Origin: Fimicolochytrium jonesii
Taxonomy: Eukaryota
DNA length: 64,000 nucleotides
Direction of reading: 5' to 3'
Assembly: GCF_025526975.1 (NCBI RefSeq)
Contig: NW_026515693.1
Span: forward strand, 1-64,000
Shown piece by piece: positions 5,470-30,991 of the stretch. A model generated the notes under the pieces. That model was not told the origin of the DNA, ran no database searches, and saw only the letters and a list, made by a program, of their open reading frames with translations. Position 1 is the first letter of the stretch. Each line of letters opens with the position of its first letter. The position numbers and the translations under genes were made by a program.

Positions 5470-5497
5470 CCAGGGGCAGTGTGATTGAGGAGGGGCT

Positions 5498-6622: not shown

Positions 6623-7537
6623 TTGTTTGCGTTCGTTCAAGCTAATAAATGGCAGATGTGCGCTACTGGCTTCGAGTTCGGACGACGCCTCGGCCTGAGT
6701 ACGTACTGGATGTACGCGTCCGTCACAGTGCCAGCTCGGGCGTTGATTTGGGACACGCTGAAGAGTACTGAGAGGGACCGTTGTAGACAGCATCCCGCCG
6801 CAGCAACTGCCTGCCGAAGCCTCCGTTGACTGGATGCCAGGGATGGAACTGTTTATCGCACCCCCGCCTGAAGTGGGAGCTCCTAGACCCGGAGGCTGCG
6901 GCGATCGCGAACGCGCTGCAATTCGACCAAATGACTGTCGTCGACGGTCTGGTTTTGGCGAACGCCGCGAGATACATTGGCATTGGTCAGTCGTCGTTTT
7001 CCAAGAAGGTTTGATTGCACGCGAGAGGGAATTGTCAGGTGGAAACGGTGTGGACACTTGTGGATGAAAAGACGTGGAACAATCCATCCAAGCCTGGGGG
7101 AACTGATTCTCTTCCGTTTATGCATTTCGTGACCTCGTTACGATCCATTCCCCTCCAGCTGATGGCCTTCCCGAAATCAATCCTCAAGATGTCCGACCGC
7201 TAGCCGTTTCCGGATTGGTAAATCAAGTACGAAGAATGCGGACCCAGAGGCGACGCTTATATATTTTTGACCTTTTCGAAGTACCTTTTTGGTTTCTCAC
7301 AACCTGCTCAGCGAGTCGCGATGGGTGGAAGTGCTTCAACCGAATGTTCTCCCTCGCCGGAAGGCTCCATTCAAAGGAGGAAGCGCAGTCCTACAAGATA
7401 CGGAAGCGAGTTCACACCGTGTATGTGCACTGGCAGCTCCAAAGGTTCTTATCCAGTCTTCATCACAACCGAAGTGCGCACAGGGGTTAACCATCACACC
7501 TCAAGTACTCAGTCATGGTCATAGCGTCCAGCAAACA

Positions 7538-8689
7538 TTACTGATGCATCAGGAGGATTTGTCGAACCCGTGCGGCGGAGTCGCTCACCGCTGCCATTTT
7601 CTCCACAAAAGTCCCGTCTGCCATGGAGAGCCTCTCCATTGCGGTGTCCGCGTCTAACCCTGGATGAACATTGCTCAAGTTCAAGAAGCGAAGATTGCCA
7701 TCCCGTATCACCGAGAAACGATGAATTGACGAGCCCAAATCGATCCCGTTAGTCTTGAAATTGACGGGAATATGTCGCAAAGTGCCGTCATCGAAGACTC
7801 CATTCTCCGGATCATGCTCTGTGTCCGGGGTAGCGTGACCAGACAGGAAGTCGAACCCTATCAAATCCACCTTGTTCCTCATAAGAGGAATGACTAGTTT
7901 TCCGAGGCGAGACGAGTAGAGGTTGTCGCCGTTGGTAAAGAGAATGTACTCGCAGGCCGGCAGGGTGGATGATTTGGGATGGGCTTCAGCGTGCACAAGT
8001 CTGTCAATAACGGCATCTGTGTACGCTGGCAAATGGAAGAACATTTCACAATGAGCAATAAGCTAGACGGGTGGAGGCGCATCCGGAGCGGCGAGGGTTC
8101 ACTAACCGTAACCATAGTCCGTCACATTGTCTTTGAGATGCGGATAACGTTGCTCGGCTTCCTGGCGCGGGATATTGACAGATATGATGGAAGTTTTGCC
8201 TTTCCCCGACAACTTTGCTAGGCGCTCCGTGTCTGTAATAACATCATCTAATTTCCGCTGCTCTTTTGAGGAAATTGGCTGCGTAACTACCAGGAGTACT
8301 GTTGCTGTGAGCGGAGGATTGTCAGGAAGGGCCAGGCTGAGCAAAAAAGCCGGCAGATATGCGAACTGCTTCGAATATGTTCTCGCAACGATACAAAGAT
8401 GTGGTGAGGGGATATCAGAACGATCCCAATCGCCGAAGGGTGGCGGGGGATTGTGCCGTCTCCAGCGTAATCTTCCAAAGATGACAGACTTGACAGTGAG
8501 CAGCGTGATGGAGAGAAGCATGAAGCCGGCGACAAAAGTCTGAAAGTATCGTTTCACTGCGCGACTTCGTGATTGGCCCCATGCCGGCTTACAGCCCCTC
8601 CTGTAGTGGATACGTCTTGATAAGAAGAAGCGGGAGTACGGGGCTATATTATCGGGACTAGGAGCCTGCTCTAGGTTGATGTAAACCAT
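7538..8689 (-). CDS. Type II membrane GT-A-like putative glycosyltransferase (TNGDN family), 2 exons
   Basis: TM segment FVAGFMLLSITLLTV; intron about 8107-8027 joins DYGY-AYTD in frame; YILFTNGDNLY, IDLG, C-terminal LLMHQ; homologous to the domain at 14430-15410. Confidence 0.75.
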
Positions 8690-10511
8690 GTCGTTGCGAT
8701 GGCAGCGTTAGAGCGTGTTCTTTCCGGTGGCGGGTAAGGTGGGTTGCTTTACGACTCTATCTATCAACCGGACTCGGACCACTACTAGCAGGACTTGCAG
8801 CTGGCGACGCGTCCCGTGATTACGTGATTATGAACACACACGAGAGCGGACGCAACAAGTCTTTCGAGCGAAGGAGTCCGCACCGCACCGGCGCTCACGC
8901 ACGCCTCCTGAATCCACACAAAAAGCTCTTCGCTAGAATAGTTGCGGGTATTTTCTCTTCGGATTCCTTGCGTTTTCACCTCGTATCCTCATCGAAAATA
9001 AATTGACCTCAAAGGGAAGGTCTCCCAATCTGTTCACGTGCTTTAGTATGATTTACCTGCACCGAGCTTTCAAGTAGCACTCCGCTCATGCTCGCATTCG
9101 CCTAGCTTTGCCCTTCTTCGGGTTTTTCATGGCATGCCCAATCCTTTGGGATCACCCATGTTTTGCCAGTACCTGGTGTCATTCCCAGACGTGGAATATG
9201 ATCATATAGTCAATTGACTTCCACACATCGCCAACCCCGAAGGATGTGAAGAATGGAATGGTGCGAGAGAAGCTTCGCCAGCTTGACGGAAGCGCGAGTT
9301 ATCATGCTGATGTAAGCTCGTCGCGTACCCGCATACCCGGTTCCCAACAGGCAAGGCCAAGATGCGCTGTAAATGTCCATCAACCATCAGGGATCCGACT
9401 GACATCCAGATTCCTCCTCGAAAACGGCTGAATACCACATACATTTCACTCAAAGGTGGGAGGCAGCTTTCTCAGAAAAAAAAAAAAGACCTTTGCCCGC
9501 ATGGGTCTACCACCGGCGCACAGTCAGCCGGCTTCCGCAGGATTCTTCTCGTGAGTCTTGTTTTTGAACACGATGATGTTCCAAATGTCGTCCTGACCCT
9601 CGTCCCCTCTGTGTGTTCCCACAGACGATGCACGTGGTGCACCTCGCCTACTCTAGCAAGGCGACTAGCGGTCGTGACGTTCGTCGCGGTGGCCACAACA
9701 TTCATATCGCTCCTCGCCTTCCTGACCCTGCGTGAATTCCAGTCGCTCTTGCACGCGCCTCCAGGCCGGCTGCTTATGCCTACCAAAAGCGAATAGGGGA
9801 GAGAGAGAGCTCCCATTTGAATCGGGGAAAGCAGCCGTAGTTGGATACTCCCCATGCATATAGTCGTCGGGGATTTGAGTGAGTGTGAACAACACACGCT
9901 GTTCACACATCCCACGGAGCGGAGTCTGTAACAGCTGTTGGGGTCGCCAGCCTGTACGAGGAGAGCCGAAGTGAGAGAGGAGTGGTTTACGACTTGTATA
10001 TTCCCAGGAAACCCGTGTACAAAAAAGCCGCATCTATAAGGAAAATGGGCACCTCTCCTATCCGTGAGCGATTCCCGATTGTAGCCCCCTGCTCGTGCTC
10101 TCTGTGTTGATTGCCCGCGACACTCGGTGGGTCTTGTATGCATATGCAAGGCGCATACCGGGGCTTGATTTCGCGATTCCTGACAATTGGCTGGCCCCGA
10201 CCTCCAATCTGTCCTGTCTACTATAGAGATATGGTATATATCGTAACAATATTGAAGTTAAATGAAGCGGCGCAAGAGGGCTGTCCCTGAATAAGACGCC
10301 GGAAAGATTGACGTCGTTGATCATGCTTTTCGAAGCTGGCGCCTGGCATAGATGAGTGCCGTTCACCTATTCCTGGTGCGTCTATTCTATATGTTCCTAC
10401 TCCTAGATACGTCCGCATGTCACCTCCTCCTCCCTGTTCATCTCCGACGTGAGCAGCCCCGCCACCCCATTGTTGCCGTGGATGACGTTGGAGGTATACA
10501 TTCCCTCATTT

Positions 10512-12117
10512 TTACGCCGCGGGTTTCTGACACAGAACAAACATGTGCAGATGGATTCGGTCGACGACAACGAGGTTCAAGCCGGCCCATTTGCAGACTT
10601 GCTCGAGGAGTTCGTAGCTGAAGACGTGCTGATGTATGCCGCGAACATCCTGGATAGGAACGGTAATGAGTGGGTGCGTCAGTGTCTCGCGGCACAACCT
10701 CGAGTACCCTCGCGGAAGTATCCTTACCTCATTCCTCAAACTCCTAGACCTAAAATGCGCCAACGTGCCTGCAGGCGCATCCATTGAGAGATCATGCAGC
10801 ATCATGATTTCATCAAAGTGCTCGCTTGGCTCGTGCTCCTGTGTTCCGCGCTCGTAGTGGGAGAGCAGGTCCGACATGGGCGTGTAGTCTCGGTATTGAT
10901 CGAAGCAGAGTTTCTTGTACGGGAGCACTAAGAAGAGATGGCTGTAGGAGTGGGAGGGACAAATGTCGTGTTAGGAGGCGGAAGTCTGGTGAGGAGGGCG
11001 GGAATGACAACGTACCCGCCCGGTTTCAAGACGGAAACCATTTGAGTGACAGCGCGAAGCGGGTTGGCGATATGTTCCAGCATGTGGCAAGCGGCTACAA
11101 AGTCATAAGGTTTTCCAATCGCACGGAGCTTCGACATATCGGTGACATCGACGACATGCTGGACGCCCATCTCCTTATTGGGATGCCACTGGAAGGTCTT
11201 CTGGCCGTCCTTCAGCTCATTCTCCCACAGCGTTGTTGCAGCAAAGTTGGAATTGTCAAGCGACGAAATGACGCTATAGATAGGAAGTACGTTGCGGAAC
11301 GGGTCTGATGATCCACCGATCTCTAATCCGTTTTTGCCGCGGAGGGTGTTGAGGACGGTATGGAGCCCGACATTTTTCTCCGGCATGTCATCGTCGACTA
11401 GGTTGGGCGGGATGATCAGGTCGGTTTTGAGGAAGACGAGACCTTCCGCTTTTGTGACGACGTCAACGGACTGGGTCGTGTCGATCCCGCGGTAACTGTA
11501 AGTAACGTCGAGGGCCAACGCTTTTGCGTCCCCGAAATGTTCATAAAGATTAACTTGTGTTGAAATTCGCAGTCGACGACCTAAGGGAGGGATGCGAATG
11601 AGGAGGGGAAAGTATGATTGGTCAGTCGACCGCCCAGTATGATCACGGATGGTGCATGGAGCGACGTCCTGGTTTCTTTGCCCGCAAAGAACAAAACTCC
11701 CACTTCCCTTCCTCCCGCTTACTCACCGATATGCAACTTTTTCACTGCTCTCGTCACATCTAGTTTCGCTTCCCCATCCCTGTACCAAGCCTTGAGAATC
11801 ACGGGCCTATCATTTGTCAATTTCGAAGGAAACGGGTCCGCACTCCCAGCGCCAGCACTTGAAGGAGGAACTACCAACGTCCCATGGGAAACAGTCTTCT
11901 CGGACACGACACCGGGACCATGGTGTGATGGTGGAATAGCGGCAGCGGCGGCAGCGTTGTTATTACTGTTTGAGAGACGAATAGAATTCGGGGCGGTTGT
12001 TGTTGTTGTTGTAGCGAGAAAGAGGGAGCGCAGAAGGACGCCGATGACGAACAGCAAGAGGATTGCCCTAGCGGGACGGGTAGCGAGGAAAGAGCCGCAG
12101 CGGGTGGCAGGGTTCAT
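10512..12117 (-). CDS. Membrane-anchored class I SAM-dependent methyltransferase (Methyltransf_11-like), about 4 exons
   Basis: N-terminal TM; GLEIGG, YDFVAACHMLEHIANP, VLKPGG-HLFLVLP; introns about 11725-11583, 11015-10942, 10726-10649. Confidence 0.8.
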
Positions 12118-12685
12118 GGTGGTCGGATATCCTTAGGAGAGGGTGGATATATCGTTATGGGAGGGGTTTAGACGATGGCAGTCCGTGAATATATACTTTT
12201 TCCCAGAGGGAAGAGAAAGGGAAAGCCGCACTCGACCGGAAGCCTCACTTCACCCCAATAACCATGTGGTGCGTGTCCTTATTCCACTACCTACATCTGT
12301 ATCAATACACGCGCGACTCTAATAATAAACAACGGCAGATCATTAAAGGATCAATAAATACATCGCGTTTCAAACGTATGCGGCCACATACGGATCGCAG
12401 GACTCTTCGCAGAGAGGGGATCTGCCGCGTAAGCTGAGGGGGAAGACGCGCAAGGGGTGAACATTGAAATGGACTCGAAAACACTCGATTCGAATGGACG
12501 ACCAAGCAACAGACCTGTATGGACACTCTAATTTAAAAGGCTCCGTTCATCCGTCCGTTTGGCGGTTTGCCTCTCTTGTCTTTGTCGTTTTGGGACCTGC
12601 ATGCGCCTGCTCGTTACCGTCTGGTCAGCCGCTACGTTGGACTGTTGAGATCCGCAACTTCGAAAATCCTCACACCATCGTAGCC

Positions 12686-15410
12686 ATGTACATCCGTCGC
12701 CGACTTCGTCCGGCATATTGTACCATACTTATGCTCCTCGGAGGAGCTATTGTAATTTATGAAAGCACATCGGCGGCTTTATCTTTCATATCTCGTCATC
12801 GACCCGTCCATAAGTACGAGTCCCACATCGGTGTCCCCCTACCATCTAACCACGTTTACAACCATACTGCCAAAGTCTCCGCCAATGCTGGTGCACTGGC
12901 GGCTGCCGAGTGGCAATCGGGTGCACTACGGGAATTGCAAGAAGCGACTTCAGGTATAGCCGTGTGGCTTGCAAGTTCGCTTTCCTCCCCTGCTCACCCC
13001 CAGTGCTTTCGTACAAATCCAGTGTCAGCAAGGAATATCAAAGTTCTTGGGTTTGTCTTTCCGCAGTTCCATCCAATACCAGAAAATAATGCTTTTTGGG
13101 GCCCCAACTTCACGGAATGGGTTAACGTCAGAAAAGCCAGCAAGAACAAGTTTGGCATGGAGGTCCCGCAACCGGAATGGGGCTACTACAATCTTCTGGA
13201 CTTTGATGTTCGCAAGCGTATGGTAGGTATTGGCAGTTCCCTGCGCCTCCTGATGGGGTATGCTGCGCTTCGTCGCTAGGGCTCAAACGGTTGCATGCAT
13301 GAGTAGGGTGACTTCTTGAGGGATAAAGGAATGTACGGCATCGTAATCCACCACTACTGGTTCGAGCAGCGGCCGATCATGGATCGATTTGGGAAGGTAG
13401 GTTGGGAACTGCACGGAAGAGTCCGTTCAAATCCGGAGCTAACCACTCTCACTTCTTAGCAAATCCTTGTGGACGGTGAGCCCAATATGCCATTCTTCTT
13501 CAACTGGGCTAACGAGCCTTGGACAAAAAGGTATACATTGTGCTCCAGAGCTCATAAACGGATGCGTGTGATTGACATCCCACTTCTCTCGCAGGTGGGA
13601 CGGATTGGACAGAAGCGAAGTGCTGTTGCCGCAAAGCTACGGAGATGAGGTTACCTGGAAAGTGCACTTTGACTACCTGATGCCCTATTTTCTCCACCCG
13701 AAGTATATAAAGGTAAGGCCCCTTTGGCGCTGCTTTTTCTTCGTCCGCCGCCCCTTCATAATCTACCTCAATATCCCTTCAGGTCGGGGGCCGGCCAGTG
13801 TTTGCCATTTACAAAGCATCTCATATGCGGCATACCCTGGGCCCCATGATGGCTAAATTTAGACAGTGGGCGGTGGAGGCGGGCTTTCCTCCCGGCGGAA
13901 TAGAAGTCATGCAGGCCAACTGGCAGGACGACCCTGTAGATCCGAACGTAGATGCCGTATATGATTTTCAGCCTCACGCTGGCGGTTGGGACGCTGGTAA
14001 CAAGGCGCTCCCCGCAAAAAGACATCCAATCCATCACAGGTACTACTGGTTACGTATCTGTTTTCGAGGGATGAGCTCAGCAACAACTCCATTTTAGGGG
14101 CGCCATGGTATCCTGGGACAATACACCCCGACATCTCACCGACGGTGCGGCTAACATGTATCTGGGCTCACATCCATCGCGGTGGTACTACGAATTGGTG
14201 GACTTGATACAATCGATCGTTGCCGACCCTAACCCAATGGCATCCGAGAACTTTCTTTTCATCAATGCCGTGAACGAATGGGGTGAAGGCAACGTGCTCG
14301 AGCCGACCGTACAACAAGGTGACGCATACGCCCAATCCCTCAAGAGGGCGCTCCAATTTGCGCGCGAAACCGGGGGATTAGTGACAGCACGGGATTCCGA
14401 GGCATGGCTGCCCGCAGTTCCCCAGCGACCAGAGACCTGTATCCTTGTGCGAACGTACAGGGGTCACGAGGACGACCAGGTCTTTACCTTGCGCGGTCTG
14501 ATAACGTCCCTTCGCCGGTTAACCAATCCTAACTGGGTGGCGGTAATCTTCCCCACCGATATGTCTGACACCTCGTACTGGGATCGCTTGAGGGAGGACT
14601 TTGATGACGAACGCCTGACGTTCTACCACCCACCAGACAAAGTGCGCCGAGTCTACTCCACGAAAGACGCAGGATACCATGCGACTGACTACGTCCTGAA
14701 GAATCTGGAGAGGGCTTGCCCGCGGTGTGCCAGCGCTAAATGGCTGCTGGTCACAAATGGAGACAATATTTATCGCCCGGACACGCTTTCGTACTTCGAC
14801 CACCAACATGACTTCATCGGGCTGAACTTTTTCTCGCGCTGGGTCGTCCACAACAACGACCAGAAACATAAAGTCCTCTGGAGCGATAGGTGCGAACGAT
14901 TTCAGCAGGAGGTGAGTTTCTGTACTTTCTTTGAGGTCCATTTTGCCTTGATGAAGGAACTAAAGACATAGGAACGGGCACTGCAAGGATCACTGCTTTC
15001 GCCCATCTCCGGCTGTAGGAAAGATTGACTTGGGCGCCATGATACTGAATCTCACCAAGTTTCGTAAAACTGGTTATACGTGGTCGTCGTTTACGGGAAA
15101 GCATCCGCTCGCACAGGATGGGAAGATGGCCGAAAAGCTTATTTCGAACGGTTTCCGCTTCGCAAACGTCCCCGAACATGTGAAGGGCTGCCAGCTGCTG
15201 CATAATCCCAGCTATGCCGCCTGCCGGGGAATGGGGCACGTATGGTTCGATTCCCCTAAGTTTTCTGAGGCAACCTGCTTGAAAGGCTCCGACGTTCACG
15301 CTCTGTTCGATAAGCGGGGCGAAGGAGCGCTGGACGCCGACTACCTGCTCGCGAATGGACACTGCATTCGATATAGCAAAAAGAGGTACCAAGAGCTCAC
15401 ATTACCGTGA
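12686..15410 (+). CDS. WbsX-like (GH99-like fold) domain fused to a TNGDN GT-A-like domain, 7 exons
   Basis: TM anchor; FPQFHPIPENNAFWG, FTEWVNV, HHYWF, NWANEPW, WDNTPR, INAVNEWGEGNVLEP; then CILVRTY...WLLVTNGDNIY; six GT-AG introns restore the frame. Confidence 0.85.
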
Positions 15411-15679
15411 GGCCAACAGCGCTCCAGCGTCTGAGCCAAGACATGTACATAGAAGACCTTTGTCGAGGTGGTTTAGATCTGTCTGTTCGATACTAATGTC
15501 GTTTGCGCCACCAACGCTTTGACTGCCGTCTTACGAACCCCATCTGGGGGATATCTCTGAAGAAATCACTGGTTCACATGGGCATTCCACAGTAGACCTC
15601 TCTGGTCTCCGGAAGAGGATCAGAATATGCCTGGCTCCTCTTGCTCGGCAGGTGGTACGTATAGTAGGAGAACGAACAC

Positions 15680-16212
15680 CTAGCCAGTAGGCCCTGCGAT
15701 GTGTGTAGTCCGTGCGCATTCCGCCCCTTGGAGTGTGTCTCCGAGATGTTCGCACTGTTTCGAAACCCCAATGATACCAGCTTGATACGCAAGTGCGACA
15801 TAGATTTGCTTGGCCATCATTGCGCTCCTCACAGTAAACGGTCCCTCTGCCTCCACTATTCTATTCCTCTTCGGTAGGTATACGCTGCCGACCTGTTGAT
15901 AATTGCGAAGCCCAGTAAAATCTTCGTGAACGTGAGGAAAGACATCAAGAATGTGACAACCGCGACGAAAGTTACAGCCGCCAGCCTTGTGCGTGTAGTA
16001 CTGGAGACGATGTATTGCATGCATCGCCCGTGGGAAGAGATACAAGGTTAGGACGATGGAACATAGAGATGTCAAGACAAGGCTCACAAGAAGAAGCCTG
16101 TCGATTGACGACTGTTGGCTGATGGTATGCCCATGCTGGCGAAGTTTGGCCTATGATATTTGCGGCTTACTGAAGTATAATATCGAGGGTTCAGGAGGAA
16201 CTTGGAATCCAT
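15680..16212 (-). CDS. Small or truncated type II membrane protein of unknown function
   Basis: ATG at 16212; a phase-0 GTAAGC...CAACAG intron joins to TM segment LLLVSLVLTSLCSIVLTLYLF; no recognised catalytic domain. Confidence 0.35.
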
Positions 16213-17326
16213 ATCAACATTGACGACAGCGGGCGGTTGTGAGGTCCTCACAGCCGGCCGGTGACTTCTGCGGGCCACAAGGATTTATTGACCGCGTCCG
16301 GATTGTCATTGTCATTGGAGTCGGAGTTATCTGGCTCGCCGGGTCCGTAACGGAAGCATCAGCTAACCCGTGTGCATGTGTGACATGAGAAGGAATACGA
16401 GTGCCAGCAGGGCTCCGTCCTCCCGGTATACAGGGAACGCGACGCGCTTACGTCAGCATCGGGGCGCGCAATCACCCAGTTAGGGACTTATGATGGCCCC
16501 GATAGATACCAGTAAACGTGTCCCCAGCTCTGGAACCCCGTCGCTCAGCTAGGAAACGAGAGTTTGCGTCCGATATCAGTGTAGAAGGATCGACCCCCTA
16601 ATCATTGGCCCCCGTCCGACGGGGATTGGCGCTGCCAAACATGCAAAGCAACTTAGCTCAAAGTCCTGACTGATTGTGGACAGTTTTCCGGGAGTGGGAG
16701 AGTTTGCGTTGACCGATGTTACCGACGAACGACTTCCCTCCGATGTTGGTGGCCATGTGTACGTTGGGAACGGCAATCTCCACCTATGGGCTCTCAGATT
16801 TCTGTCTCTTGTCTTCATGTCCTCTCCCTCTCTGCCATGTTATCGCGTACAAGTACTATAGGAGTAGCCAGCTGAGAGGAGTACCTCCCATAAACCCTCG
16901 TGTAATCCTGTTCCTGTTATTTTTTCGTATTCCAGGTTCTCCTTTGCTCCCTCTCTGTGGTACCCACAGTCCCCACCATCTGCTGACGTTACCTCTGTGT
17001 CTCATGATTACCTACGCTGTATCGCGGATTCCACGCGTTCCACAATGGTACAATTTCACGTACTGTATGTTTAATCTGGATCACTTATGGGTTCGGGAGT
17101 GATTCTTTGAAGAACGTATACGGGCCAAACGGACCACATCAGGCACCAGTCAACGCACGAGCGACGCGTTACTAGACGACGACCCGTTAGTCGCTGAGCT
17201 GCGAATTACTTTTTCTCCGAATTCACGTTTGCCCATTTTCGGGTCGGTCACTTCCGAGAAGCCTTCCCACCCAGCCGTTGTAGACGGCAAAAGCATAGGT
17301 TGCGGAGCCAGCGACGGAATCTAGCG

Positions 17327-19559
17327 ATGAGGGCTGTAACAGACTTTTCCACGGCGTTCGCTTGGGTTACCACGGTGATCACCAGTTCGGCGGCGGCGCT
17401 GTTAATTCGCCTTTCTCGGAAAAGAGCGGGCGGTTCATATCAAGATTCCACCGCTATCATGTTATCGGAGAGCCTCAAGCTATTGGTGTACGTCATTGGG
17501 ATACGTTTTCAAAGGTCAACAAATCAAGCTACAGTTCCTGAGCAGGGCACTGTAGGTATGCGAGCGATCGTAAGTTGTCAAGGAGGTCCCAAGGTGCTAT
17601 TAGCTGCGGGGCTACTTTTCAGTCACAACTATTTGAAATTCATTGCCTCCTCATGGTAAGAAGCATACCGTCCTTAACGCTGGCGTATTGTTAGGGCGGG
17701 CAATGCCTAACCCCACCCTTTCTTCCACTTAGCCTGGGCGTTGCGCAAGTTTTATCCCTTAACCAGATGTCGATTTGCACCGCTGCGGTCTTCGCAACTT
17801 TCCTCCTAGGCCATGCCGTGGCCATTCGGGAGCGCTTTGCCTTAGCCGTTCTGGTTGTGGGAGCTATCATAGTACAGCTTCCTAAGAACCTGAACGGCCC
17901 TTCCGAGAATTCCTTTGGTCTATGGTCCGGGATTCTTGTTCCGTGGATATCTGGTTTTTTCGAAACCTATATGCAGTCTGCGAAAGTGTCCCGCTCGTCA
18001 CAGTTAGGGCTAAACCTGGAACTCAGCGTGTACTCCGTCACCCTCTCACTGTTCGCTGTCGCAGTGCAGAGCGGAGCAAAACTGCGGGAAGGCCAAGACT
18101 GGATCTGGAGCGGATACTCAGTGTGGACATGGCTGGCAATTGTTGCACATGGGTTGAACGGCCTCACCTTCTCGAATGCCCTTAACAGCCTTAGTAGAAC
18201 TCATAGGAACTCTGCTGGGGCGTGCGCCATGATTCTGAGCAGTTTCGCTGCAGTACGCATACTTGATGAAGCTTTTACGTTGTACGTGACCTTAGGTGGG
18301 TTCGTGAATTCAATAAGACAAACACGCATTTCACCGAGGGCTTACCGCCGTACAGGCCTGTTTTTGATCTTCTTCGCTACCATTCAATGCAACTGCTGGG
18401 ATAGCTTCAGTAAGATCGGAACCATATCTTACGGCATTGTCCGTAGCGACGGGACCTCCGCTAAACATTTCCGACAACGGAATGTGTCAAGATCGATTTT
18501 CCGGCCGATGCTGAGCATGTCCGGCGGGATATTAGTCATATTATTGGTGTGGACTACCAGGTGGACGTTCTTATATTCCGTGACTCCAGCGTTCTTGACT
18601 CCAAGCATCCCGTGCACCTTCAATCACACGGGTCCGCTACACGACGAAGATCTGAACTGCTTGATAGAAGTCTTTCCCTTCGCTACCCCGACGAAATTAA
18701 GGCCCGTCGTCAACGGCACTCACAAGATCAAAGGCATTTCATGGAATGATGGAACTCCTCCGTAAGTAATTTTGCCGCAACTATAGCTATCGATGCTCTC
18801 TTGACACCGCACTCCCGCAGTATTCCAATCTTTATTATGTTCAAGGATCGCGTATCCCAGCTTCTTGAGCTGATTCGCAGCTTACATCGGCACATCCTTA
18901 CGCCATTCGAGATCGTTATCATGGATCAGAATTCAACGTATCCGCAAGCGGTAAATTTTGTGAGCAGACTCGAAGAATCCGGTGTCACTATCCTGCGAGT
19001 GACTGATCCATGGAACACCTTCGACGAGCTCTACTACGTGTTTGTTCGTTTGCTTAACAAATACATGGAAACAAGTAACGCCAGCTACTACATCCTTACC
19101 GACCCCGATACCGCCCTTGATAATGCCCCTGGCGATGTGCTGCAAGTCTATCAATCCGTACTGGACGTCAATAACTTGTATAGCGTTGGGGCGGCCATCC
19201 GGTGGGACGACTTACCCGACGAGCTTCGCGATGGTCATATGATGTGGGAACAAGTGATGGTTACGTTACCTGCACAGTGCCATGTGTATCGGAGCGCATG
19301 CTATTATTACAATACCGCCAAAGTTGATACCACCTTCGCTATGTACAGAAAGGGTCAAACCCTAAAACGACTGGCCGAACCAACGGTACGGATGCTTCCA
19401 CCATTAGGGGTTAGGCACCTGGATTTTTATCTGTACGATAAGTCCATACAAGTACCGGATGATGTCGAGTTCTACGAAAACGCAGTTGCCGGAAACGGGG
19501 TTCACCACTACAGTCACGGGAACGAAATCGACAAGGGAAGCGAGGCGGTGTCGAGCTAA
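17327..19559 (+). CDS. SLC35A-like nucleotide-sugar transporter fused to a GT2-like glycosyltransferase, 4 exons
   Basis: STAIMLSESLKL, LNQMSICTAAVF, SGFFETYM, GYSVWTW; extra TM; then IPIFIMFKDR, IMDQNSTYP, YYILTDPD, VDTTFAMYR. Introns about 17656-17732, 18296-18355, 18762-18820 keep the frame. Confidence 0.8.
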
Positions 19560-20679
19560 GGACCAAAGTTAATCTACGATGGGACAAACGTCGGTGCTAT
19601 GGATATCATATCCAGAATTCGATATCTTAGGCATCCGACTGTCCTGTGAAAGACACAAGCAGTGGCTTCTCTCCATCGGAAATCCAAAAGTCACTGGATG
19701 GTGGAGATTGGAAAAGACTATACAATAGAACTCTGCTATCGCCCATCCTGTCTCCTATAATAACTTTTGAATCCAAGTGAAGGCATTCCGCACACCTTTA
19801 AAGTTGTGCTTCTCTGATAATGGTTCAACCCCCAGCTTGCAATGCTGGAGAGCGGGACATAAGCGGTGGTATTCGGGTTGTGTTCAAGCTCCGAGTCTTT
19901 TACGAATAGCTGAGGTGCGCAAAGTGCCCAAACTCGGCGGAACGCACTCTTTTGATGAGCTGGTATGTCTGGCAAGGGCAGATAATACGGTGTGGGACTC
20001 CCAAGTCCACCGGGACTAATATGTACGGAGCAGAAGTCGATTCGTGTTGACCCGCCGGTATGCTAAATTGCTTAGCAGGTGACTTAGGGTAGGCTGCTTC
20101 AGTGTCGGAAGTCCACATTGTCCGGATTACTGTCCTGGAAAGATCCAATGAGATTGGTGAAGCCCCTTTGCTCCGACAACGGGAATCTACAGTATCTTCT
20201 GCCCGATCAAGTCCGACGTGTGCTTCATGTTTATTGCGAAGAAGCTGTATTATCCGCCACCCGCTACTACTCCGCCCCGCTCAACCTGTATCCGTCCCTT
20301 CGCCCCCGCCGCCCTCTGTTTCACCTTCCTCACCCTACCTTTAAGGGCAACGTTGCCGTTCAAAAGTTCTCCAATGTCAACGGTCCTACGTCTTCAAATT
20401 CACTCCTTTAAATTTAGGATGGTCAACGGAACACCATGTGCACGCATAAACGTCGTTTAAGTGCAGATGCATGCATTTATGTAAGTTTTAAATATTATGA
20501 ACGCGTTGGAATTGACGCGCATTACGTCAGCCAGCGCCTGAAAGTGATGGGTCGCGCTGCCGACGGGGAGTTGTGAATTCGGCATCCGATCCTCCGCGAG
20601 CTTCAAATTCTGCGTAGATATCGTTGTTCCGATGCACCAGCTCAGGAAACACTCATCGTCGTCAAAGGCCCGCCTAGTA

Positions 20680-22225
20680 ATGATGGCCGTCAGATCGTTC
20701 ACGACACGGAAGTCCACGATCATTGCGGCATTAGTGCTCACAATGACCGGATGTGCACTTGTTTCGGTGCCCTCAAGGGACATGATTTCGTCTACAAGGG
20801 AACCAGCTGGCGGCATGATCCCCTTTTGGGCTAGTGCTCCCAGTAGCAAGGCGGATATCGTCGACAGGTATACTCGTTGCCTCACCCGACCTCCTAGTGG
20901 TGCTGTCATGTACAATACAGAACGATGCTGGAGTGACATCTCAACGTATGTCCTGGACTTTCCTCAGAAGATAAACATCGACCGGCTCCACAAATGGCTG
21001 ACTTCCCTTCCTGCAGTGAGATTTATATGGATGTATTGGCCAGAATCGAGGATTCGGCCCCGACCGAGCTTAGTCGTTTTCAGATTGCCGAAAACCAATT
21101 ATATTTGCCAAACTGGCAACCATTTGATTTATTCAAGCCTACATACGAGTGCAACGCCATGGACCTGCTCAGGTACAGTACGCTATATCTCCCATGCTGT
21201 TGATTGCACGTTTCTGCAACCTTCTAAAATCTTACATGGCTTTTAAGGATCGGCGAACCTTCGAGGAAGTCGGACAGTGGGAAGTGGCTTTGGTAATTGA
21301 AGACAACAGTGTTGACCCTGGCATACGAGCTCTAGCTAATATGACGCTTTAGCTCGGACAAGATTGAATTTGGCAATAAATGTGTGATCTTCTCCGTCGG
21401 ATCGAACAATCAATTTGATTTCGAAGTCGAGATGCACGGCCATTTTCCCAAATGTGAGGTACGTATGTATGCGCGTTACGGCCGGCATGCCCTTGAGACG
21501 CAAAATGCTGAAGGGAGCTTGTTTTGTTGCAACTTGCAGATTCACACGTTCGACTGCACCGGAGATTTCAGCAATCCATCCACAACATTTCACAGAACGT
21601 GTGTTGGAAGGGAGGATGTGAAAACCGAGAAAGGGGCCTTCAAGCGCTTGTCAACAATCAAGAAGGAGCTAGGGGTCAACACAGTGTCCTTGCTCAAGAT
21701 GGACATTGAAAAGTATGTGGTTTTGCGGCAGCAATCACTCTCCCGTTGTGCTGATCCCCGGATATCAGCTTCGAATGGCAGTTCTTCTTAGACATGCTAG
21801 ACGAACCAGAGGATAGTCGGCCAATGCAAATACTTGTTGAGTTTCATATTCGCATGGAGCTGCATGACCCCACCGGAAAATTGATGCCCTACCCCTGGGA
21901 TCTCGCGCCCACCCTCTTTGAGGGTTGGAATCGAAACTGGGCCATCCCAATCGCTCGAATGGTGAAAGTATTCCACCAGCTTGGGTATAGGATAGTTTGG
22001 CAGGTACCGATATGATGACATGTCCCTGAAAGGTTTCGAATGGCTTCCTATATTCTACGTTTATACTTACCTCTCCCCTTCCCGACTTCGTTTACTTAAT
22101 CAGGAAAGGTAAGGACGCTCCTTGTTGATATCCCGGAACCTGTTATTGACGTCTTATCCTTATACAGGAACCGGTGGGGAGAATTCGCCACGGAACTTAT
22201 TCTCGTCCATCAACGAGCCTTATAA
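20680..22225 (+). CDS. Membrane-anchored Methyltransf_22 (METTL24/FkbM-like) methyltransferase, multi-exon
   Basis: TM/signal segment; FKPTYEC, DSGKWLC, CVIFSVGSNNQFDFE, IHTFDCT, LLKMDIE, QILVEFH; about 7 introns. The start could be 20632. Confidence 0.8.
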
Positions 22226-22931
22226 GCATTCTGAGCAGATTGCCAATAGGAGGATACCCTTTGACGACAATGTGTGTATCGAAGCCCACAATAGTTTCTA
22301 TATGTACTTTCTGTGTGCGCGACAATGTACATGAACCGGTTGCGATTCGCTATCCTCACGAGAGGCTAGACTGTTCTCCGCCTGGTGCTGGGAAGAAGAG
22401 AGGACGAGATAGAGCTGGATCAATGCATAGATCACTCACAAGACTCAATTCTCTGCCTTAACACATCAGACGTAATGTATTGATATTGTTTCTGGTGTGG
22501 ACTTCTGCAGGCGGGACAAAGATTTATTGCCGACCTTTTCGTGCGTTCCTCGTTAGTGTCTAGAAATGTCCATTGCCTTATTATGGTTTAGGGCACCAAT
22601 TGCTACACCAATGCGCTCGCCATTCAACATGACACACGGAAGAGCATCTCCTTTATCAACAGCAGTTTTCTCCGATTGTATTGACGCGTTGCATATATGG
22701 TTAAAAGCATCTCCATCATAGGGTCATTGACAAAATGTGGCCATTGATTTGTGGCCGTTAATGTGTACATGTATATCTATGTGTTTGCGTATATGCATTT
22801 GTGAACCTCTTTCCAGGACAGTCTTCCTTCGCTGATACTGAAATGGGACAGGGATTGCAGGCTTCCATGACATATAGCTCCTTAGGAGAGCAGGCTGCTC
22901 ATAATGTCGGCGCTCAGCACCTGATGATGAA

Positions 22932-24103
22932 TCAGGCAGTGCCGCGGAGCGGTGGCCCAGACACATAGTACGGGCAAGAGTTTTTGTGGATGCCGAGCAT
23001 GTTGTCGTGCCATGTGCTGTAATGATTCAGCGCATTATCATCTTGGTTGACCGGAATGGTGAGAAAACAGATAAGTTCATATGTCGGCCATTGTTCGACG
23101 TATTTTTACAGCCATGGTCATACCAATGCCCCGGTTCGCTTTGATGAATATGAGCTCATACGGGTGGAAGCTCATGCCATAGTAGCGATCCCGAAAATTC
23201 ATGTCGCCGGAGTCACAACGATCCGGGTCACCCGTGGCAGAAGTCATCAGCGCATCCACTTTGTAGCCATTGGTCTCCAAGATGCCGGTCAAGGGAACCT
23301 CGCCCATATGAACTGCATCAGTGATTTTGTCCGGGCAAGGCAATGTTGCGGGCCCAACCGCATATCCAACCTCATCGAAGGCCAATACCATACTCTGCAC
23401 GTGCCGGGAAACTCCATGCATATTGCAATAGACCGTCGTCCCCACCATTTTGACGTCATCTGTGAGGCGATCGAGGAAATGATCGATCCAGCACCCTCTA
23501 TCGTATAGTGGAAGAAAGGGACCCCGCACCGATGCGTTAATCATTATGTACCGTCGGTAGCGGCGATGTCTTTTAGCCATATACTCTACTCCTTGGCGGA
23601 AAGAACCCAAATCGTAACATCTGCAGAGAAGTCGATGAGAGAAAAGGAAATAGGCAATTTTAGCTTCCCATTTTAGGTTAGGCAGCCATGGAATTTGGCA
23701 TGACACCTAACAGGACCCCAGACACATACTTGTTCTCTTTTCCCCACACGAAGATGTTTGGCAAGTTGGGAAACACCACGCCTTGAGGTGTGGGACTGTT
23801 CATAACGAACAGGTAATCGGCATTGCTTTGCAATCCATGACGTAGGAAAAACTCCAAGTTGGCTGTCTGCTGTGGTCTGTTCCGGGCGGCGTCTGCGGCG
23901 TTGAAACCATTGATTGTACCCATGCTTGCGCGGAAGGATTCATCTTCCGGAGTCATGCTTCCGTCGTAATAGACGTACACAATTAGAGGTCGAAGCATAG
24001 ACCTCCGTAGCGTCCTATAGAATATAAAAAAGGCGATGGCGAGCGCAATCATGCTTGCCCCCGCTAGCACTCGGCGAGGGACGAGTCGGCGAGGTTGGAA
24101 CAT
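22932..24103 (-). CDS. RgpF (rhamnan synthesis F)-like putative glycosyltransferase, 3 exons
   Basis: TM anchor; LIVYVYY, NLEFFLRHG, ENK-CYDLGSF, INASVRGPFLP, HVQSM, HPYELIFIKANR. Confidence 0.7.
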
Positions 24104-24572
24104 GTCGGACGTAGGTTATTGCTATCCAGGCGAAAGCTAAAACGAGCATATGGAAGAAGACAAGCAAATCGTTGAATTCATGTGATATGGGCGAGGGCAG
24201 TGCTGCACATATACGTATATAGGTGGCGGAATTTCAGCACGTTGGCAGGAAGCAGGCACAGCCCGGGCTTGCCACTTGATTGCTTTGTCAACAGTCGTAG
24301 AACCCAGTACTGCCCGTCAGTGGTGCATCTTCAGAACGCGTCGGTCGGCATGCGTTACATAATCATATTTGCACGCGTATTTGCCACGAAAAGTGCCCCG
24401 GCGAGGCTTCCTTGTGCAGGCGGCTTTCCATTTGGAAATATACTGTATATATATACATATATATATCACCGCACCCGCGTCCGATCACTGTGCCGGTCAA
24501 CTCTTCACCCTGCTCGCAACCTTTACTTCGTCCATCCACAAATCCTGCGCTACACCCCAGAAGCTACGAGAT

Positions 24573-27298
24573 ATGCTTGAGGGACCCTCTACAGCCCGGG
24601 TGGCGGTGGCCGGAATAGCGTCCGTGATCACTACGATTTTCGAGAAATACGTTCTTTTGATCTTCCCATTTCCACCACTTCTTCTTCTTATGCAGCAGGT
24701 GCGTTGTGTGGCGACGTTCGCTTAGAACCCGTTCCAGCGTGTCTCATCTTCCGTAATAGGGTGTAATTTTGGGGATCAGCCAGTGCGTCGTTGTTCCGAC
24801 CCGTCGCAATCGAACGCTTCTGCATGACCAAAGCAAACAAGAAAAGGGCGAGCGTAGCCATTCCGAAGACTATAATACGGCGCCTGCCTTGCGATCTCGA
24901 CGATATCTCACGATCGGCCTGCGTTGTGTTTGCACAGTGGCGACAATGACGGCCTTATGGCTTAACACCCTTCGAAATTTTCAGCTCTGTCTGCTCTGGA
25001 TTCCAGCGTTCGGGTGGATTCTCAATTACACGTTTTTCTCATCTCGCGCATCAGTATCTGGGTCTGCTCGATCATCCGCGATTTTGCCCATTACCATGCT
25101 CATAGCAGGTTTCAGTCTGTTGATCGACGGCGGATCGCGAATGGAAGCGCTTTGGACAGGGATATGGGCAGCGCTACTTATTGCGGTGACGGACGCGTAT
25201 ACAACACATTTCTCGCTCGAAGAAGATTCAAATGCGTTGCAGCAAGCTCAAGCTGCCGTACCGTACATGGCAGGCATCTCGCTGGTGCTCTCTGTATTCC
25301 AGTGGGGCTTGATGGATTCCTCAAACTTTAGCACATTGGTTATCGCGAGGAAGGATTTGTGGGCCGCTTGCGGGACATTAGGCGGTTGTGCCGCCGTATG
25401 GGCAGTATCGCTCTATCTCTCTGCCCAAATTCAAATCGGAGGCCACAGCGAAGCCTTTTCGAGTCACGCACAAGCTTTATGTGTGATTCTGTACACCTTC
25501 TTCAGCCATGGAACGGGAGTCGCGTCTTCGTATGACCGAGGGTTGAAAGACGCTTTTGGTTTGCTGCTGGTAGTTCTTGGGATGGGCATCGATATATGGG
25601 CTAAGAAGCATCAAAGCCAGGAGATTAGGTAAGGACGGGCGTGTAAGTCTTGAGGGCTGGCAAGAGTCGTTTTAGACGGCCATTCATTCTCGCCATAGTT
25701 CCTTCCCACTCTAATATTTGTTCTGTCTCCTTTGGGTTCCGTTTGGATTACAATCAACTTCCAGTCTTCCTCGGTCAGCCGCCGCTATCGAGCGAAATCG
25801 GAAAGTCGGATTATTAAATATCATAGTTATAGTAATCCTCGGAGGTGCCTGCGGACGAGTCTTTCTAGGTCTTCTCAAGTAAGTTACAAGACGTCTACCA
25901 GGCTCTTCCTGGGCGAGAGGTTGACAACAACTTGCTGTCACTCAAACCCGCATGTCCCTTATTCGCATCGCGTTACAGTTCACATTCAATGGCGCCGTCT
26001 ACGGGCCGATCGCCGCCTCTAGACCACAGTAACAAGCTTGCCCTAAACATAAATCTTAGCGGCGGCGAGCATCTGAAACTCTATGTCCCGCCCTGTCCTC
26101 GCCTGGCGCCTGAAAGAGCGGAGCCAGCCAAGCATGTCAACTGCCCCACGGAAACACTTCCCTTCTTCAATCGATCGCGTAGTGATGAGCCACGAATGGT
26201 TCGTATGAAAGGGGTAGCAGCGCCCCGAAGACTCTTCGACGTGTTTTATTTCAATACTGAAATGGAGATGCTCGACATCCGTCTGATGACTCTCTGGAAT
26301 GTCGTGGACTATTTCGTCATAATGGAAGCAGGATTCACATATACGGGAAAGGACAAACCCTTTATCTTTGGAGAAATGAAGGACAATCGATACAGTGCAT
26401 TCAAGAGTAAGATAATTCACATTCCCGTAGCCAACATGGATACGCCGGTAGACGATGGATTGCCGGATATACCCGCAAGTGGGGCCAGCAATGATTGGAA
26501 GCGTGAAAACGCCGTTCGCGATTACCTTCTCCGACAAGGCTTGAAAGCTGCGAGCCCTGCCGATGGCGACATTGTTGTGGTATCGGATCTGGATGAGATA
26601 CCGCGCCCGGACTATTTGCAGACTCTTAAGACTTGTCATGGTTGGGAAACCGTTTCCAAGCGCAAGGACAGGATTTGCATGAAAAGCGACATGTTCTACT
26701 ACAATTTTGAATGGATGCAGCCACATACGGCGTGGTGGCACCCTGACGTATACGTGTGGAAGGGGGACGGAACCATTCGAGGTACCTCCCGATGGGAGGG
26801 ACATCAATCCACCGAGGACATTGCATGCATAGATCATGCCGCGTGGCATTGCTCATATTGCTTTCCCACCATGGACTACTTGATTGACAGTAAGTCTCAG
26901 GAGTACCCACAACAAAGCGGTCACTGGTATTGAATCTCATCATATCGCATATATGCTCTGCATAGAACTCGGGTCCTTTTCTCATCAGGAAATGAACACT
27001 GAGCGCAATCGCAGTCCGCGTTGGATTCTCGGTAGCATGCTATCGGGCCATAATGTGTGGGATGAGGACGGGCATCCTTCCAATCAAAAGGTAAGAGAAC
27101 TCCTGGGGCAATCGAGTGACATACACCTTTACTGATCGCAGGTCATCTCACAAGGTTGCACCAAACTCTCCGACGTGGGTGGCCACGAATCCGGACTGTT
27201 ACGCGCACCTAATTGACCGTCGCTACGGGCTTACTGAACCATTGTGGTGGGAAGTTGGCAAATGGGGTGCTAATCAACTTGGACGACCGCTTTTGTGA
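24573..27298 (+). CDS. Divergent DMT/nucleotide-sugar-transporter-like domain probably fused to a GT17 (MGAT3-like) domain
   Basis: Multi-TM region 24573-25628; intron 25629-25763 leads in frame to TM VGLLNIIVIVILGG; intron about 25878-25978 leads to GT17 motifs FNTEMEMLDIRL, VVDYFVIME, VSDLDEIP, AWHCSYCF, SFSHQE. Confidence 0.7.
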
Positions 27299-27679
27299 TG
27301 TGATGGGCCGCAAATAGCGAGGCAGACGATGCAGCTTGGAACATTGGGAAGCTAAATGAAATGGACGAATTCCATTTGCCGTAATGGCGGATTCCCGCGC
27401 TGGAAGTTTGTTTCAGTGTTGTTGTAGACTTCGAAACCTCCTGAACAGATTTATCATTAGGACTTCGAGCCTCTCCTCATGCGAGATGGACCGTTATCGA
27501 TGCTGTGTATGTAATAGGTTGATTTAAGCCAAGCCTCCCGGTTTACTATAAAACAAATTTTGCCGAGCTTCCTTCGTTGAAAGTAAAACCAGAGGGCAAC
27601 ATGCAGATGGTGCGCACGCCTCATGTCATTGTATATATAGATCACGATAGCATACTTGACCCGAATTGACAGTGGTAGT

Positions 27680-29296
27680 TGCCGTCCTTGTTCGCGCGTC
27701 GCCAGCGCTTCAAACACTCCGCCCGCCGTAGACTCTCTTCCCCATTGCGCCGCCCAAAAAGTTCACCCACTGCACCTACAATGGCCTCTCCTTGCTGGAC
27801 ACGCCGCGGGTCACCCCCAGCTTCTCCCCACCCGAACCCGGGCACTCCTTCTTCGAGGCTCTCTCAGTCTGACGTCGTTACACTTTGACGCTCCCCGCGC
27901 TTCAGTGGGCGCACCCCTAGCATTCCACATCCATCAATAGATCCAGCACTTGGGGAGCAGAAAAAATGCCAGTCTTGCAAAAGCAGTTGGCAATTGGGAT
28001 GGGGGTAACGTAGCTCCACGCCTCACTGACAAGCTCTGTGCACGCATGCAGATCTATCGGCACCTTCTGCGTATCGACAACATTGCCGCGCCAATGTTGG
28101 CATCAATTTTGTTTATCCATACCCTCATGAGTAGCTTCCGGTAGTTGCTTTTAAGGTTTCGAATAATTCCAGCATCCATTGGCTGCAATATGGATGTGGT
28201 GTTTGGTGGGAGCGGATGGAGATTGATCGTCTGCAGGCGGGGTTGAAGCTCTTCAGCTTTGCCGTGGCCAGGAAAGTTGTCAAACAGAAACAACACGGGG
28301 CGCTGCAAAGATTCATCCCAATTCAAGAGAAATTCCTCCCCAATCTGGGAAGTCATCCACCCCTTTTTGCTGTTTCGATAAATGACGCTCATTGGTTTGT
28401 TTCTGAATGCTCGAGGATGGGCAGATTGGCCGATGACAAGGGGCAATTCCTTGTGGGAGCCGGTAGCGTTGCTGAGGAAGAGCACAGTCACCCGCTCTTT
28501 TGAGAGCTTTGTGCCGCTTGTGAGGCCATGTGCAAGATGGTATTTGGGGGCAACTTCCAGAATAAGCCTGTCTCGTCTGCGTTGTAGACATCATTTGGAT
28601 CCCACTCTGCAAGAAGCTGTTGCAGTTCCCGTCGACTTGCTGAAACCAGGTCTGTATCAACGGAGGCAGCTTCCCCATGCAGTTTGGACCGCTTGAGCCC
28701 GTGGCGCTCCCTGAAGCTCTGGGTCCAGCCATGGGAAGTTTCCAACGGGGGAAGTGGAGTGTATTCCCGAAATAAGGTGTAGAGGAATGTTGCCTTCATA
28801 TCGAGCAATCAGTCGGTGGCACCATGCCAGGAGACCTTTCTCAACAAGAGGAAGCGGCGTTCGACGTTTTTCGGCACTGGCAGGGGTTAGATTCTCAATG
28901 GCTTCAGTGATGTTGGGACCTCTTTGGCGGATTCTGGTGACGTTACTGGGAGCCACGCCAAGATTGCGGGCTAGGGTTGAGGGTTTGACACCATTTTCAA
29001 GTTGCTGAAGCACTTCATGTTGTTGACTGAGTGGCAGAAGGACTCTGGGTTTCTTATTGCGCTTTTTTGGAGTTCGGGAGGACTATATGTCGAGATGCTA
29101 GTAGAACAAGCTGATTCCGACACAGTGAATGCGTTGAGGTCAGTTGCTCGTTCCAGAACAGCCAAGATCAGTACAGAGTTGCAGTGCGGTGATTGCCGTG
29201 ATGATGCTCGCAATTGCGTAGGGAAGGAAGGAGCATTAGGCCGCGCGTCTAGAGCTCTTCCGTCAACTGAAATTTCCGTCAACTGAGACGTGACTG
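27680..29296 (-). mobile_element. pogo/Tigger-type DNA transposon relic (HTH and DDE_1), frameshifted
   Basis: VYNADETGLFWK, GWMTS, LFDNFPGH, LPPNTTSILQPMDAG; candidate 5' TIR TA-CAGTCACGTCTCAGTTGACGG ending at 29296; second TIR not found. Confidence 0.85.
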
Positions 29297-29419
29297 TATG
29301 TACGTAACCTTTGGCCGCGTAACCATATCAGCCTCGGTATCGCAGGTATCGCGGCTTTGATATCCGCAGTTTCTGCATCGAACCTGCATTAACACGCCCC
29401 ACACTACATTATACATATC

Positions 29420-30991
29420 ATGACCCAAAGACTGGAACGTGCGCTGTTCCTTCACGGGCGACTTCGCCCAAACCTATTGTTCGCGAATCTACTGCTGTTA
29501 TGCATCGTGATTGGGCTATATCTCCATCTTGCTGGACAGAGCCATTTATGGAGCTCTGGAACTGTGGTCAGTCATCCCCCCGGTGCGAACTCTTTGAATG
29601 TATGTAAAGTGGTAGATTATCTACACTTCAATTTACGTGTCTGACTGGCTGACACTATCCTAGTCGTTGGCTCCGATCAATTTACAGAGTCCCAACTCCG
29701 ATGCCGAAGTTCGGCGAAGGCGTTTCGACGCGCGCGTACATGAAGTTTTTGGAATCGCAGGGCAGGCGGCTTCTGGGCGGTCACATATAGCGTCGGAACA
29801 TGTTACACGACGATTGGGCATTAATCGCATGTTTCAGGACAGTGAGGCGCTGAATGTGCAGGCAAGAGCAGACCCTCCCTCTTTCCGCTGGGTGGTCTTC
29901 ACTTGCCACTGCGCGGGAGATATCGGCGGCCCGGACTGTATTTGTGGCGGTCTGGGTGATCGTTTGAAAGGCTGCGTCTCTGCGTACTATTACGGCGTTT
30001 TTACCAATCGAGCGTTCGCCATTAGCATGACGTTTCCGGATGACGTGCGAAGTTATCTTGTCCCCTCAAATTTGGATTGGAGCCTCGACCTCGCGAAACT
30101 TCACGGAAGAACCGAGGTGACAGTGAACTTGATTGATCCACCTGATGACGATAGGGCACTCCTGGATGGCCCTGACTCGTGGAACGACTACGATGTAGTC
30201 TATGTTCGGACCAACCGCGATCTTCTTAGCAAGATGCTCCAGAACCATTCATGGCAGCTTACAAGGGAGAAGTACTCATTGCAAAATTACCACCGCGAGA
30301 GTTTGGTAGGATCAGCGTTGCGAACACTTTTTCAAGCGTCCCCCAGAATGGAGCATATGCTTGAGAGTATCCGGAAGAGCATACCGAACTATCGGCGGCT
30401 CATCAAGATTGGCATTCAGTTCCGCGCTGGGGGACAAACTGGCGAGGGCGCATTTGAGCACGACACGGGCGGTCACAGAACCTCATTGGATATGGCGAAT
30501 TGCTTCATTGCTCGTGCTGTGCAATTTGCGCTGGACCGCCGCCTTCGAACAGATGAGGTCGTTTACTTCTTGACATCTGATCATGAAGCGATCCAAAGTC
30601 AGATGTCCGAGACCCTCAATGATTTGGGATACAAGACATTTACCACCACCGGTACGAGCCTTCTTCGATTCGCATCCGATAAGATGTGCAGTAATGAACA
30701 GTGTCCCATATTGCAGGCCCGTTGACACACATCGACAAGCCCGTTCACGAAGCTGGAGACCAATCACAAGAAATGAAACATCGGCGAACTTACATCGACT
30801 GGTTTCTTGAGGCGGAGATGGACTACCTTGTCATTTCCCGATCAGGTTTTGGAGAAACTGCTCATTTCTATACGCTGAATCCAACCGTACGGATAAGAAG
30901 CGTTGAGAACAACTGTGTGTTCGACAATTCTACCGACCACTCTTTATGGCCCGTCACTTCGAGCTCGAAAGGGGCCTTTATGACCGACTGA
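29420..30991 (+). CDS. Type II membrane GT-B fucosyltransferase-like protein (GT23/GT37-like), 3 exons
   Basis: TM anchor; CGGLGDRLKG, IGIQFRAG, YFLTSD, HIDK, DWFL...SRSGFG are fucosyltransferase-superfamily motifs. Confidence 0.75.

Follow-up and report, generated by a model that had tools for sequence, protein, structure and literature searches.

Eight Linked Glycan-Related Genes near a Telomere of the Chytrid Fimicolochytrium jonesii

Fimicolochytrium jonesii is a spizellomycetalean chytrid. The stretch of its DNA analyzed here (contig NW_026515693.1, positions 1 to 64,000 of the forward strand; 64,000 nucleotides, hereafter the window) carries a run of eight glycan-related genes, which we call G1 to G8 and which occupy 14,783 of the 23,454 bases between positions 7538 and 30991. 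The cluster is real and intact. We consider it reasonably probable that the eight genes form one decoration module of the Golgi lumen, which builds and caps chains containing deoxyhexoses and methyl groups on glycoconjugates that are secreted or displayed at the surface. The analysis directly establishes that the genes are linked and have intact exons, and it establishes their membrane anchors and folds; all the sugar specificities named below are predicted.

The gene models were checked exon by exon. All 30 introns have GT-AG borders and measure 56-146 nt, no model contains an internal stop, and each of the eight genes encodes a hydrophobic segment, N-terminal or internal, that is predicted to be a membrane anchor. 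The exon boundaries are a reading of the DNA, with public protein models backing only G3 and G8. Taken with the family, profile, fold, and Atlas assignments given below, these checks sustain the preliminary description of the locus as eight glycan-related genes in a row over 23 kb, all of them with introns and membrane anchors. As had also been described, little is inserted among the genes: one small open reading frame (ORF) of no known family, predicted to have one hydrophobic segment (15680-16150, minus strand), and a broken pogo/Tc5-type DNA transposon (28054-29082, minus strand; DDE_1, HTH_Tnp_Tc5, CENP-B_N), with nothing else noted. If glycan genes make up 2-5% of a genome of 10,000 genes, both figures being assumed, the chance that eight of nine neighbors are of glycan type is ∼2e-9 to 3e-6 per genome. 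Pairwise likeness among the eight is confined to G1 and the C-terminal domain of G3 (30% over 60 aa), and the cluster is therefore not a tandem array. Two gene pairs, G2/G3 and G6/G7, are arranged head to head. The GC content of the cluster is 0.51, and that of the flanks is 0.52 and 0.50. The family-library searches were made with single exons and public proteins, such that a domain interrupted by an intron could escape them, and the Pfam scan took in 36 ORFs of the window. Pfam bore out the assignments of G2, the WbsX part of G3, the transporter of G4, and the GT17 domain of G7; it returned no match above the cut-off for G1, G6, G8, or the glycosyltransferase (GT) domain of G4, and G5 fell below the cut-off. 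With NCBIfam, no ORF of the window scored above the cut-off. Matches to PsbW, TMEM218, MalA, and BID in the window were dismissed as spurious.

G3 (12686-15410, plus strand; 746 aa, 8 exons) comprises an anchor, a WbsX/GH99-like barrel, and a GT-A domain. Its largest exon is 99% identical to KAI8817629.1; the next-best match is HDU87_006881 of Geranomyces variabilis (61%), followed by Sordariomycetes proteins at 31-35%, in a search limited to proteins of 490-2000 aa that found 8 among 1037 candidates. A profile of 76 rows, built from 14 proteins, the metagenome loci L001 and L002, and 60 more loci of the 66 that passed the filter, matches GH99 endo-mannosidase at 6.7e-6. In the predicted structure (pLDDT 83.8), the first domain matches GH99 endo-mannosidases (6.9e-10; 12-14% identity) and the second matches the GT-A enzymes WrtF and SpsA. 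E380 is invariant (76/76 rows), E383 is present in at least 90%, and the pair aligns to the GH99 NEWHEG (NEWxEG) motif. We take the two Glu residues of the NEWxE motif to be the catalytic residues of GH99; the PDB titles of GH99 structures matched by the G3 model include E333Q/E336Q variants. Because the profile, the model, and the NEWxEG glutamates all point to GH99, the Pfam name "glycosyltransferase WbsX" conceals a hydrolase-like barrel. As modeled, the N-terminal part of G3 that is annotated as WbsX folds into a hydrolase barrel like that of GH99 and is joined to a GT-A domain; it probably serves in trimming or transglycosylation. The earlier assignment of this gene as WbsX plus GT thus stands for its GT-A domain and needs correction for its WbsX part, which is hydrolase-like and not a plain glycosyltransferase. 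G3 resembles the GH99 endo-α-mannosidases in barrel fold and NEWxEG motif but differs from them in its low identity and its fusion to GT-A, and its activity is only predicted. A quick tree joins the pair of chytrid G3 proteins to two-domain proteins of the ascomycete type as sister groups (99% SH-aLRT), and this group sits inside a 19-row clade that includes L002; the placement is evidence against recent bacterial transfer. No paper treating WbsX together with GH99 or with RgpF was found in the literature searched, and among the matches listed the literature on WbsX alone was mostly about a filarial antigen.

The one relative of G3 within the cluster, G1 (7538-8689, minus strand; 356 aa, 2 exons), is a GT-A-like type II membrane protein with a TNGDN motif. 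Comparison by hhalign groups it with the GT-A domain of G3 through exon 2 (probability 90.9, E 1.2e-6), the value for exon 1 being a probability of 16.3. G1 and the C-terminal domain of G3 would appear to represent an unnamed GT-A family.

Two genes encode putative methyltransferases with type II membrane topology. G2 (10512-12117, minus strand; 435 aa, 4 exons) is a class I S-adenosylmethionine (SAM) methyltransferase that matches Methyltransf_23 (PF13489) at E 3.3e-9, and no relatives of it were found in a prokaryote genome scan or in phage and plasmid searches. Its lumenal start (11400-11830, minus strand; split by intron 1) may resemble a SUEL/rhamnose-binding lectin pattern, with both halves lacking a Pfam match. 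G5 (20632-22225, plus strand; ∼363 aa, 8 exons) is Methyltransf_22-like. Its model includes a putative 5-nt micro-exon at 22104-22108, which has GT-AG introns on either side and restores the frame, and it ends in a stop codon at 22223-22225. From their membrane anchors and genomic context, we infer that G2 and G5 methylate sugars.

G6 (22932-24103, minus strand; 326 aa, 3 exons), likewise a type II membrane protein, was described at the outset as RgpF-like (rhamnan synthesis F), and Atlas agrees (0.96; 204/256 features, with RgpF in 26/30 matches); searches of single exons gave no Pfam (PF05045) match. We therefore refer to G6 as RgpF-like on the basis of Atlas. No relatives of G6 were found in the viral scan or in the phage and plasmid searches.

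G8 (29420-30991, plus strand; 480 aa, 3 exons) is a type II membrane protein identical (100%) to KAI8817635.1. A search of representatives returned 423 proteins at E ≤0.001, and the best 150 of these 423 were used; among the matches listed, the closest is HDU86_007773 of Geranomyces michiganensis (58%), the next is HKX48_006801 of Thoreauomyces (43%, a DUF268 fusion), and relatives at ∼30% occur in molluscs and Marchantia. The profile built from 99 of the 150 relatives matches plant FUT4 (1.6e-20), AtFUT1, FUT8, and NodZ, and POFUT1 weakly, with R314 and D366 nearly invariant. The top structural match of the G8 model (pLDDT 81.6) is AtFUT1 (E 5e-14, TM ∼0.5). As modeled, G8 has the GT-B fucosyltransferase fold, so the description of a FucT-like gene is upheld at the level of fold; its donor is predicted to be fucose or another GDP-sugar. 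G8 is like the GT37/GT23 fucosyltransferases AtFUT1, FUT8, and NodZ in fold and conserved Arg/Asp motifs but shares 12-14% structural identity with them and scores below the Pfam cut-off. The viral scan returned no relative of G8. DUF268, presumably methyltransferase-like, is fused to the G8-type domain in three proteins (P0025, which is Thoreauomyces HKX48_006801, P0055, and P0081), and a GT of the G4 type and a GDP-mannose dehydratase are found close to it in the viral locus L081.

G4 and G7 are transporter-GT fusions. G4 (17327-19559, plus strand; 678 aa, 4 exons) joins in frame an SLC35A-type transporter (Nuc_sug_transp, E 7.6e-14, 52 bits vs a cut-off of 27), an anchor, and a DxD GT2-like domain. 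Relatives of the GT domain at 22-33% occur in 31 viral loci, 21 of which were used in the alignment. A search for long relatives of G4 gave 3 matches among 1252 candidates; one of them, HDV00_004736 of Rhizophlyctis rosea, is a G4-type fusion with the same linker and 53% identity in the GT domain. The SLC35A motifs QLK, GFAGVYxEK, and KYxDNIxK, to which we ascribe a role in binding, are all three altered in G4, while the R. rosea protein retains QLK, GFAGVYxEK, and most of KYxDNIxK. G7 (24573-27298, plus strand; 762 aa, 6 exons) carries a GT17 domain (Pfam E 1e-32, 114 bits vs a cut-off of 26) behind an anchor and an N-terminus that is DMT/SLC35-like (TPT-like) by Atlas (0.95) and has no Pfam match. 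The best of 97 matches among 703 candidates in the search for long relatives, G. variabilis HDU87_002074, has the G7 layout with a multi-pass N-terminus and is 57-61% identical in GT17; in the membrane part the two share a match of 32 residues only. The fusions noted in the preliminary description are thus found again in R. rosea and G. variabilis, but their transporter domains look degenerate. Given the loss of motifs in G4 and the short membrane match in G7, the transporter halves may be relaxed carriers or anchors.

In the decoration module that we favor, sugars would be added by G1, the C-terminal domain of G3, the GT domain of G4, the GT17 domain of G7, and the RgpF-like G6, while G8 would add fucose or another GDP-sugar. 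O-Methylation of sugars by G2 and G5 would provide caps, and the GH99-like barrel of G3 would trim or release chains. The DMT/SLC35 halves of G4 and G7 could supply nucleotide sugars to their fused GT domains or merely anchor them; sugar donors and SAM would have to be provided by genes in other parts of the genome. Among G1 to G8, within the 36 ORFs scanned by Pfam, there is no gene for nucleotide-sugar synthesis and no SAM transporter, multi-pass polysaccharide synthase, flippase, or exporter. The claim of a self-contained pathway must be given up, because donor synthesis, SAM import, and a synthase gene are missing and the transporter domains are degenerate. Since neither a donor-synthesis gene nor a multi-pass synthase is present, the cluster more likely decorates glycoconjugates in the Golgi, for which single-anchor enzymes are typical.

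Orthologues of four of the eight genes (G3, G4, G7, and G8) were sought in a protein collection that includes eukaryotes. They were found at 43-61% in four other chytrids, and G. variabilis is the only genome in which two were found. Of 80 metagenome loci retained out of 575, two, L001 and L002, carry the full two-domain gene. At 5703-11947 of L002, a eukaryotic contig of non-fungal type, the WbsX-GT gene is accompanied by a gene for an anchored methyltransferase and by a separate G1-type GT gene (hhalign probability 69.8, E 4e-5), and this trio adjoins a copia element. L002 is a second small glycan cluster, lying outside the fungal clade of the quick tree. WbsX is also found alongside ABC exporters and methyltransferases in polysaccharide loci of bacterial type; in a neighbor scan of 47 of the 100 ORFs around seven bacterial-type loci and one viral locus, a methyltransferase was near WbsX in 4/7 of the bacterial-type loci and an RgpF gene in 1/7.

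Several observations count against a common Golgi module. The two orthologues found in G. variabilis lie on different contigs, that of G3 on one of 144,305 bp and that of G7 on a partial one of 7,863 bp, a placement compatible both with linkage and with its absence. On L001 (a fungal-type contig of 5.5 kb), no second cluster gene stands beside the WbsX-GT gene; on L002, the pairwise comparison of G1 with the GT is not significant, and the methyltransferase has no detectable relatedness to G2. Within the cluster itself, G5 reaches Methyltransf_22 at E 1.6e-4, with one exon only and just below the Pfam cut-off, and profiles of the G4 GT domain matched no solved GT over that domain. The transporter domains of G4 and G7 have diverged far more than their partner GT domains. 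Neither search for long relatives of G4 and G7 returned a fused F. jonesii protein, and the public F. jonesii annotation accordingly gives the fusions no support.

Eukaryotic Golgi glycosylation genes are seldom clustered. The Aspergillus galactosaminogalactan cluster, which the preliminary description had chosen for comparison, centers on a membrane synthase accompanied by an epimerase and a deacetylase. It is alike in being a fungal glycan cluster that includes a hydrolase gene, but its synthase, epimerase, and deacetylase families are not seen in the F. jonesii cluster. Bacterial O-antigen/rhamnan loci share families with the cluster, in that WbsX (PF14307) and RgpF (PF05045) co-occur there with methyltransferases and GT2; unlike them, the cluster has no ABC exporter, flippase, or donor synthesis, and its enzymes have introns, type II anchors, and fused SLC35-type transporters. 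By our comparison, the closest precedent is instead the small outlier chromosome of Ostreococcus and other Mamiellales. As set out in the available part of PMC5082852, chromosome 19 of O. tauri carries a fusion of RgpF and Wbx, a GT92 that has a triose-phosphate-transporter domain, methyltransferases of the FkbM type, and transposons, with up-regulation in virus-resistant lines; the paper calls the RgpF domain of O. tauri the sole eukaryotic one known when it appeared. The cluster and chromosome 19 thus have in common clustered GTs, RgpF/Wbx, a transporter-GT fusion, methyltransferases, and transposons, and surface glycans are proposed as the product there too (PMC5082852, same part). Set against what that part reports, the F. 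jonesii cluster is a 23-kb subtelomeric block of intron-rich genes in a fungus, its RgpF-like and WbsX genes are separate, it has no epimerase or dehydratase, and its GC content is not below that of the flanks. Clustered glycan loci are thus already known from bacteria and Mamiellales, and the chytrid cluster is a variant of that kind. The literature search, judged by title and abstract start and with most subscription journals outside it, turned up no paper on such a cluster in chytrids or other fungi, and the papers naming the genus Fimicolochytrium reported none among the matches listed. The available part of PMC8778642, on the GT families of early-diverging fungi, mentions no cluster of this type.

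The chief alternative to a common product is that the subtelomere is a collecting ground, where accessory surface-glycan genes of separate pathways share a fast-evolving compartment; we give this a real but minor chance. It would suit the way in which orthologues turned up, singly or in twos across four chytrids and never two on one contig, the transposon relic that separates G8 from the other genes, and the Mamiellales outlier chromosomes, which according to the available part of PMC5082852 have similar functions with little orthology. It fits poorly with a run of eight glycan-type genes broken by just one ORF of no known family, with the two head-to-head pairs, and with the similar trio on L002. 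A second alternative, which we judge quite unlikely, is that the product is a free wall, capsule, or adhesive polysaccharide (rhamnan- or fucan-like), with G6 and G3 serving for polymerization and the control of chain length in the manner of bacterial O-antigen loci. The RgpF-like character of G6 and the bacterial-type loci that pair WbsX with ABC exporters and methyltransferases speak for it, and a hydrolase barrel next to a GT would fit chain release; the missing synthase, flippase, exporter, and donor-synthesis gene and the single-anchor enzymes, which are typical of Golgi glycoconjugate decoration, speak against it. That the cluster is a recently transferred and decaying bacterial or giant-virus island is very improbable and largely refuted by its 30 introns and intact frames, its flank-like GC content, the 43-61% orthologues in four other chytrids, and the grouping of the G3 barrel with ascomycete-type proteins in the quick tree, even though several of its families are mostly bacterial, the G4 GT domain has its viral relatives, and, according to the available part of PMC13533422, a giant-virus capsid gene is present in F. 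jonesii on a contig that is otherwise fungal.

If G1 to G8 do act together as a Golgi decoration module, they would make chytrid surface glycans, which to our knowledge are poorly characterized, accessible through one compact locus that can be deleted. They would also furnish candidate new enzymes, namely the unnamed GT-A family, a eukaryotic RgpF-like enzyme, Golgi sugar methyltransferases, and the GH99-like WbsX domain. The locus lets one ask whether transporter-GT fusions channel donors, and it bears on a possible convergence of fungi and algae toward glycan loci as a means of defense. A bolder idea, which we regard as speculative and rather unlikely, is that a subtelomeric "serotype" cassette, open to exchange, exists in zoosporic fungi as a convergent counterpart of the virus-immunity chromosome of algae. 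Such a cassette would write a fucosylated, O-methylated surface glycan with the aid of the unnamed GT-A family (G1 and the C-terminal domain of G3) and a GH99-like editing domain, its parts would be reshuffled between lineages, and it would set recognition by giant viruses, parasites, or grazers. The fusions do differ between Rhizophlyctis, Geranomyces, and Thoreauomyces.

The position of the cluster between a telomere and a block of transposable elements is as first described, with (CCCTAA) repeated 11 times at 1-66 and a Ty3/gypsy and copia relic block beyond the cluster at 32000-64000. On the telomere side, a copia relic, an F-box ORF, and a 539-aa ORF precede G1; the last two lie within 4957-7117, the F-box ORF matching PF12937 (E 6.9e-6) and the 539-aa ORF having no Pfam match. 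Adjoining the telomere is a 239-bp direct repeat (93%; 382-620 and 4284-4521), and between its copies are the copia relic, of reverse transcriptase/RNase H, and an unrelated ORF (2367-3143, minus strand). On the far side, 36405-55487 consists of four tandem units of ∼4,770 bp at 99.4% identity, each combining pieces of two gypsy-type elements that run in opposite directions; the four units reflect either recent tandem amplification or a feature of the assembly.

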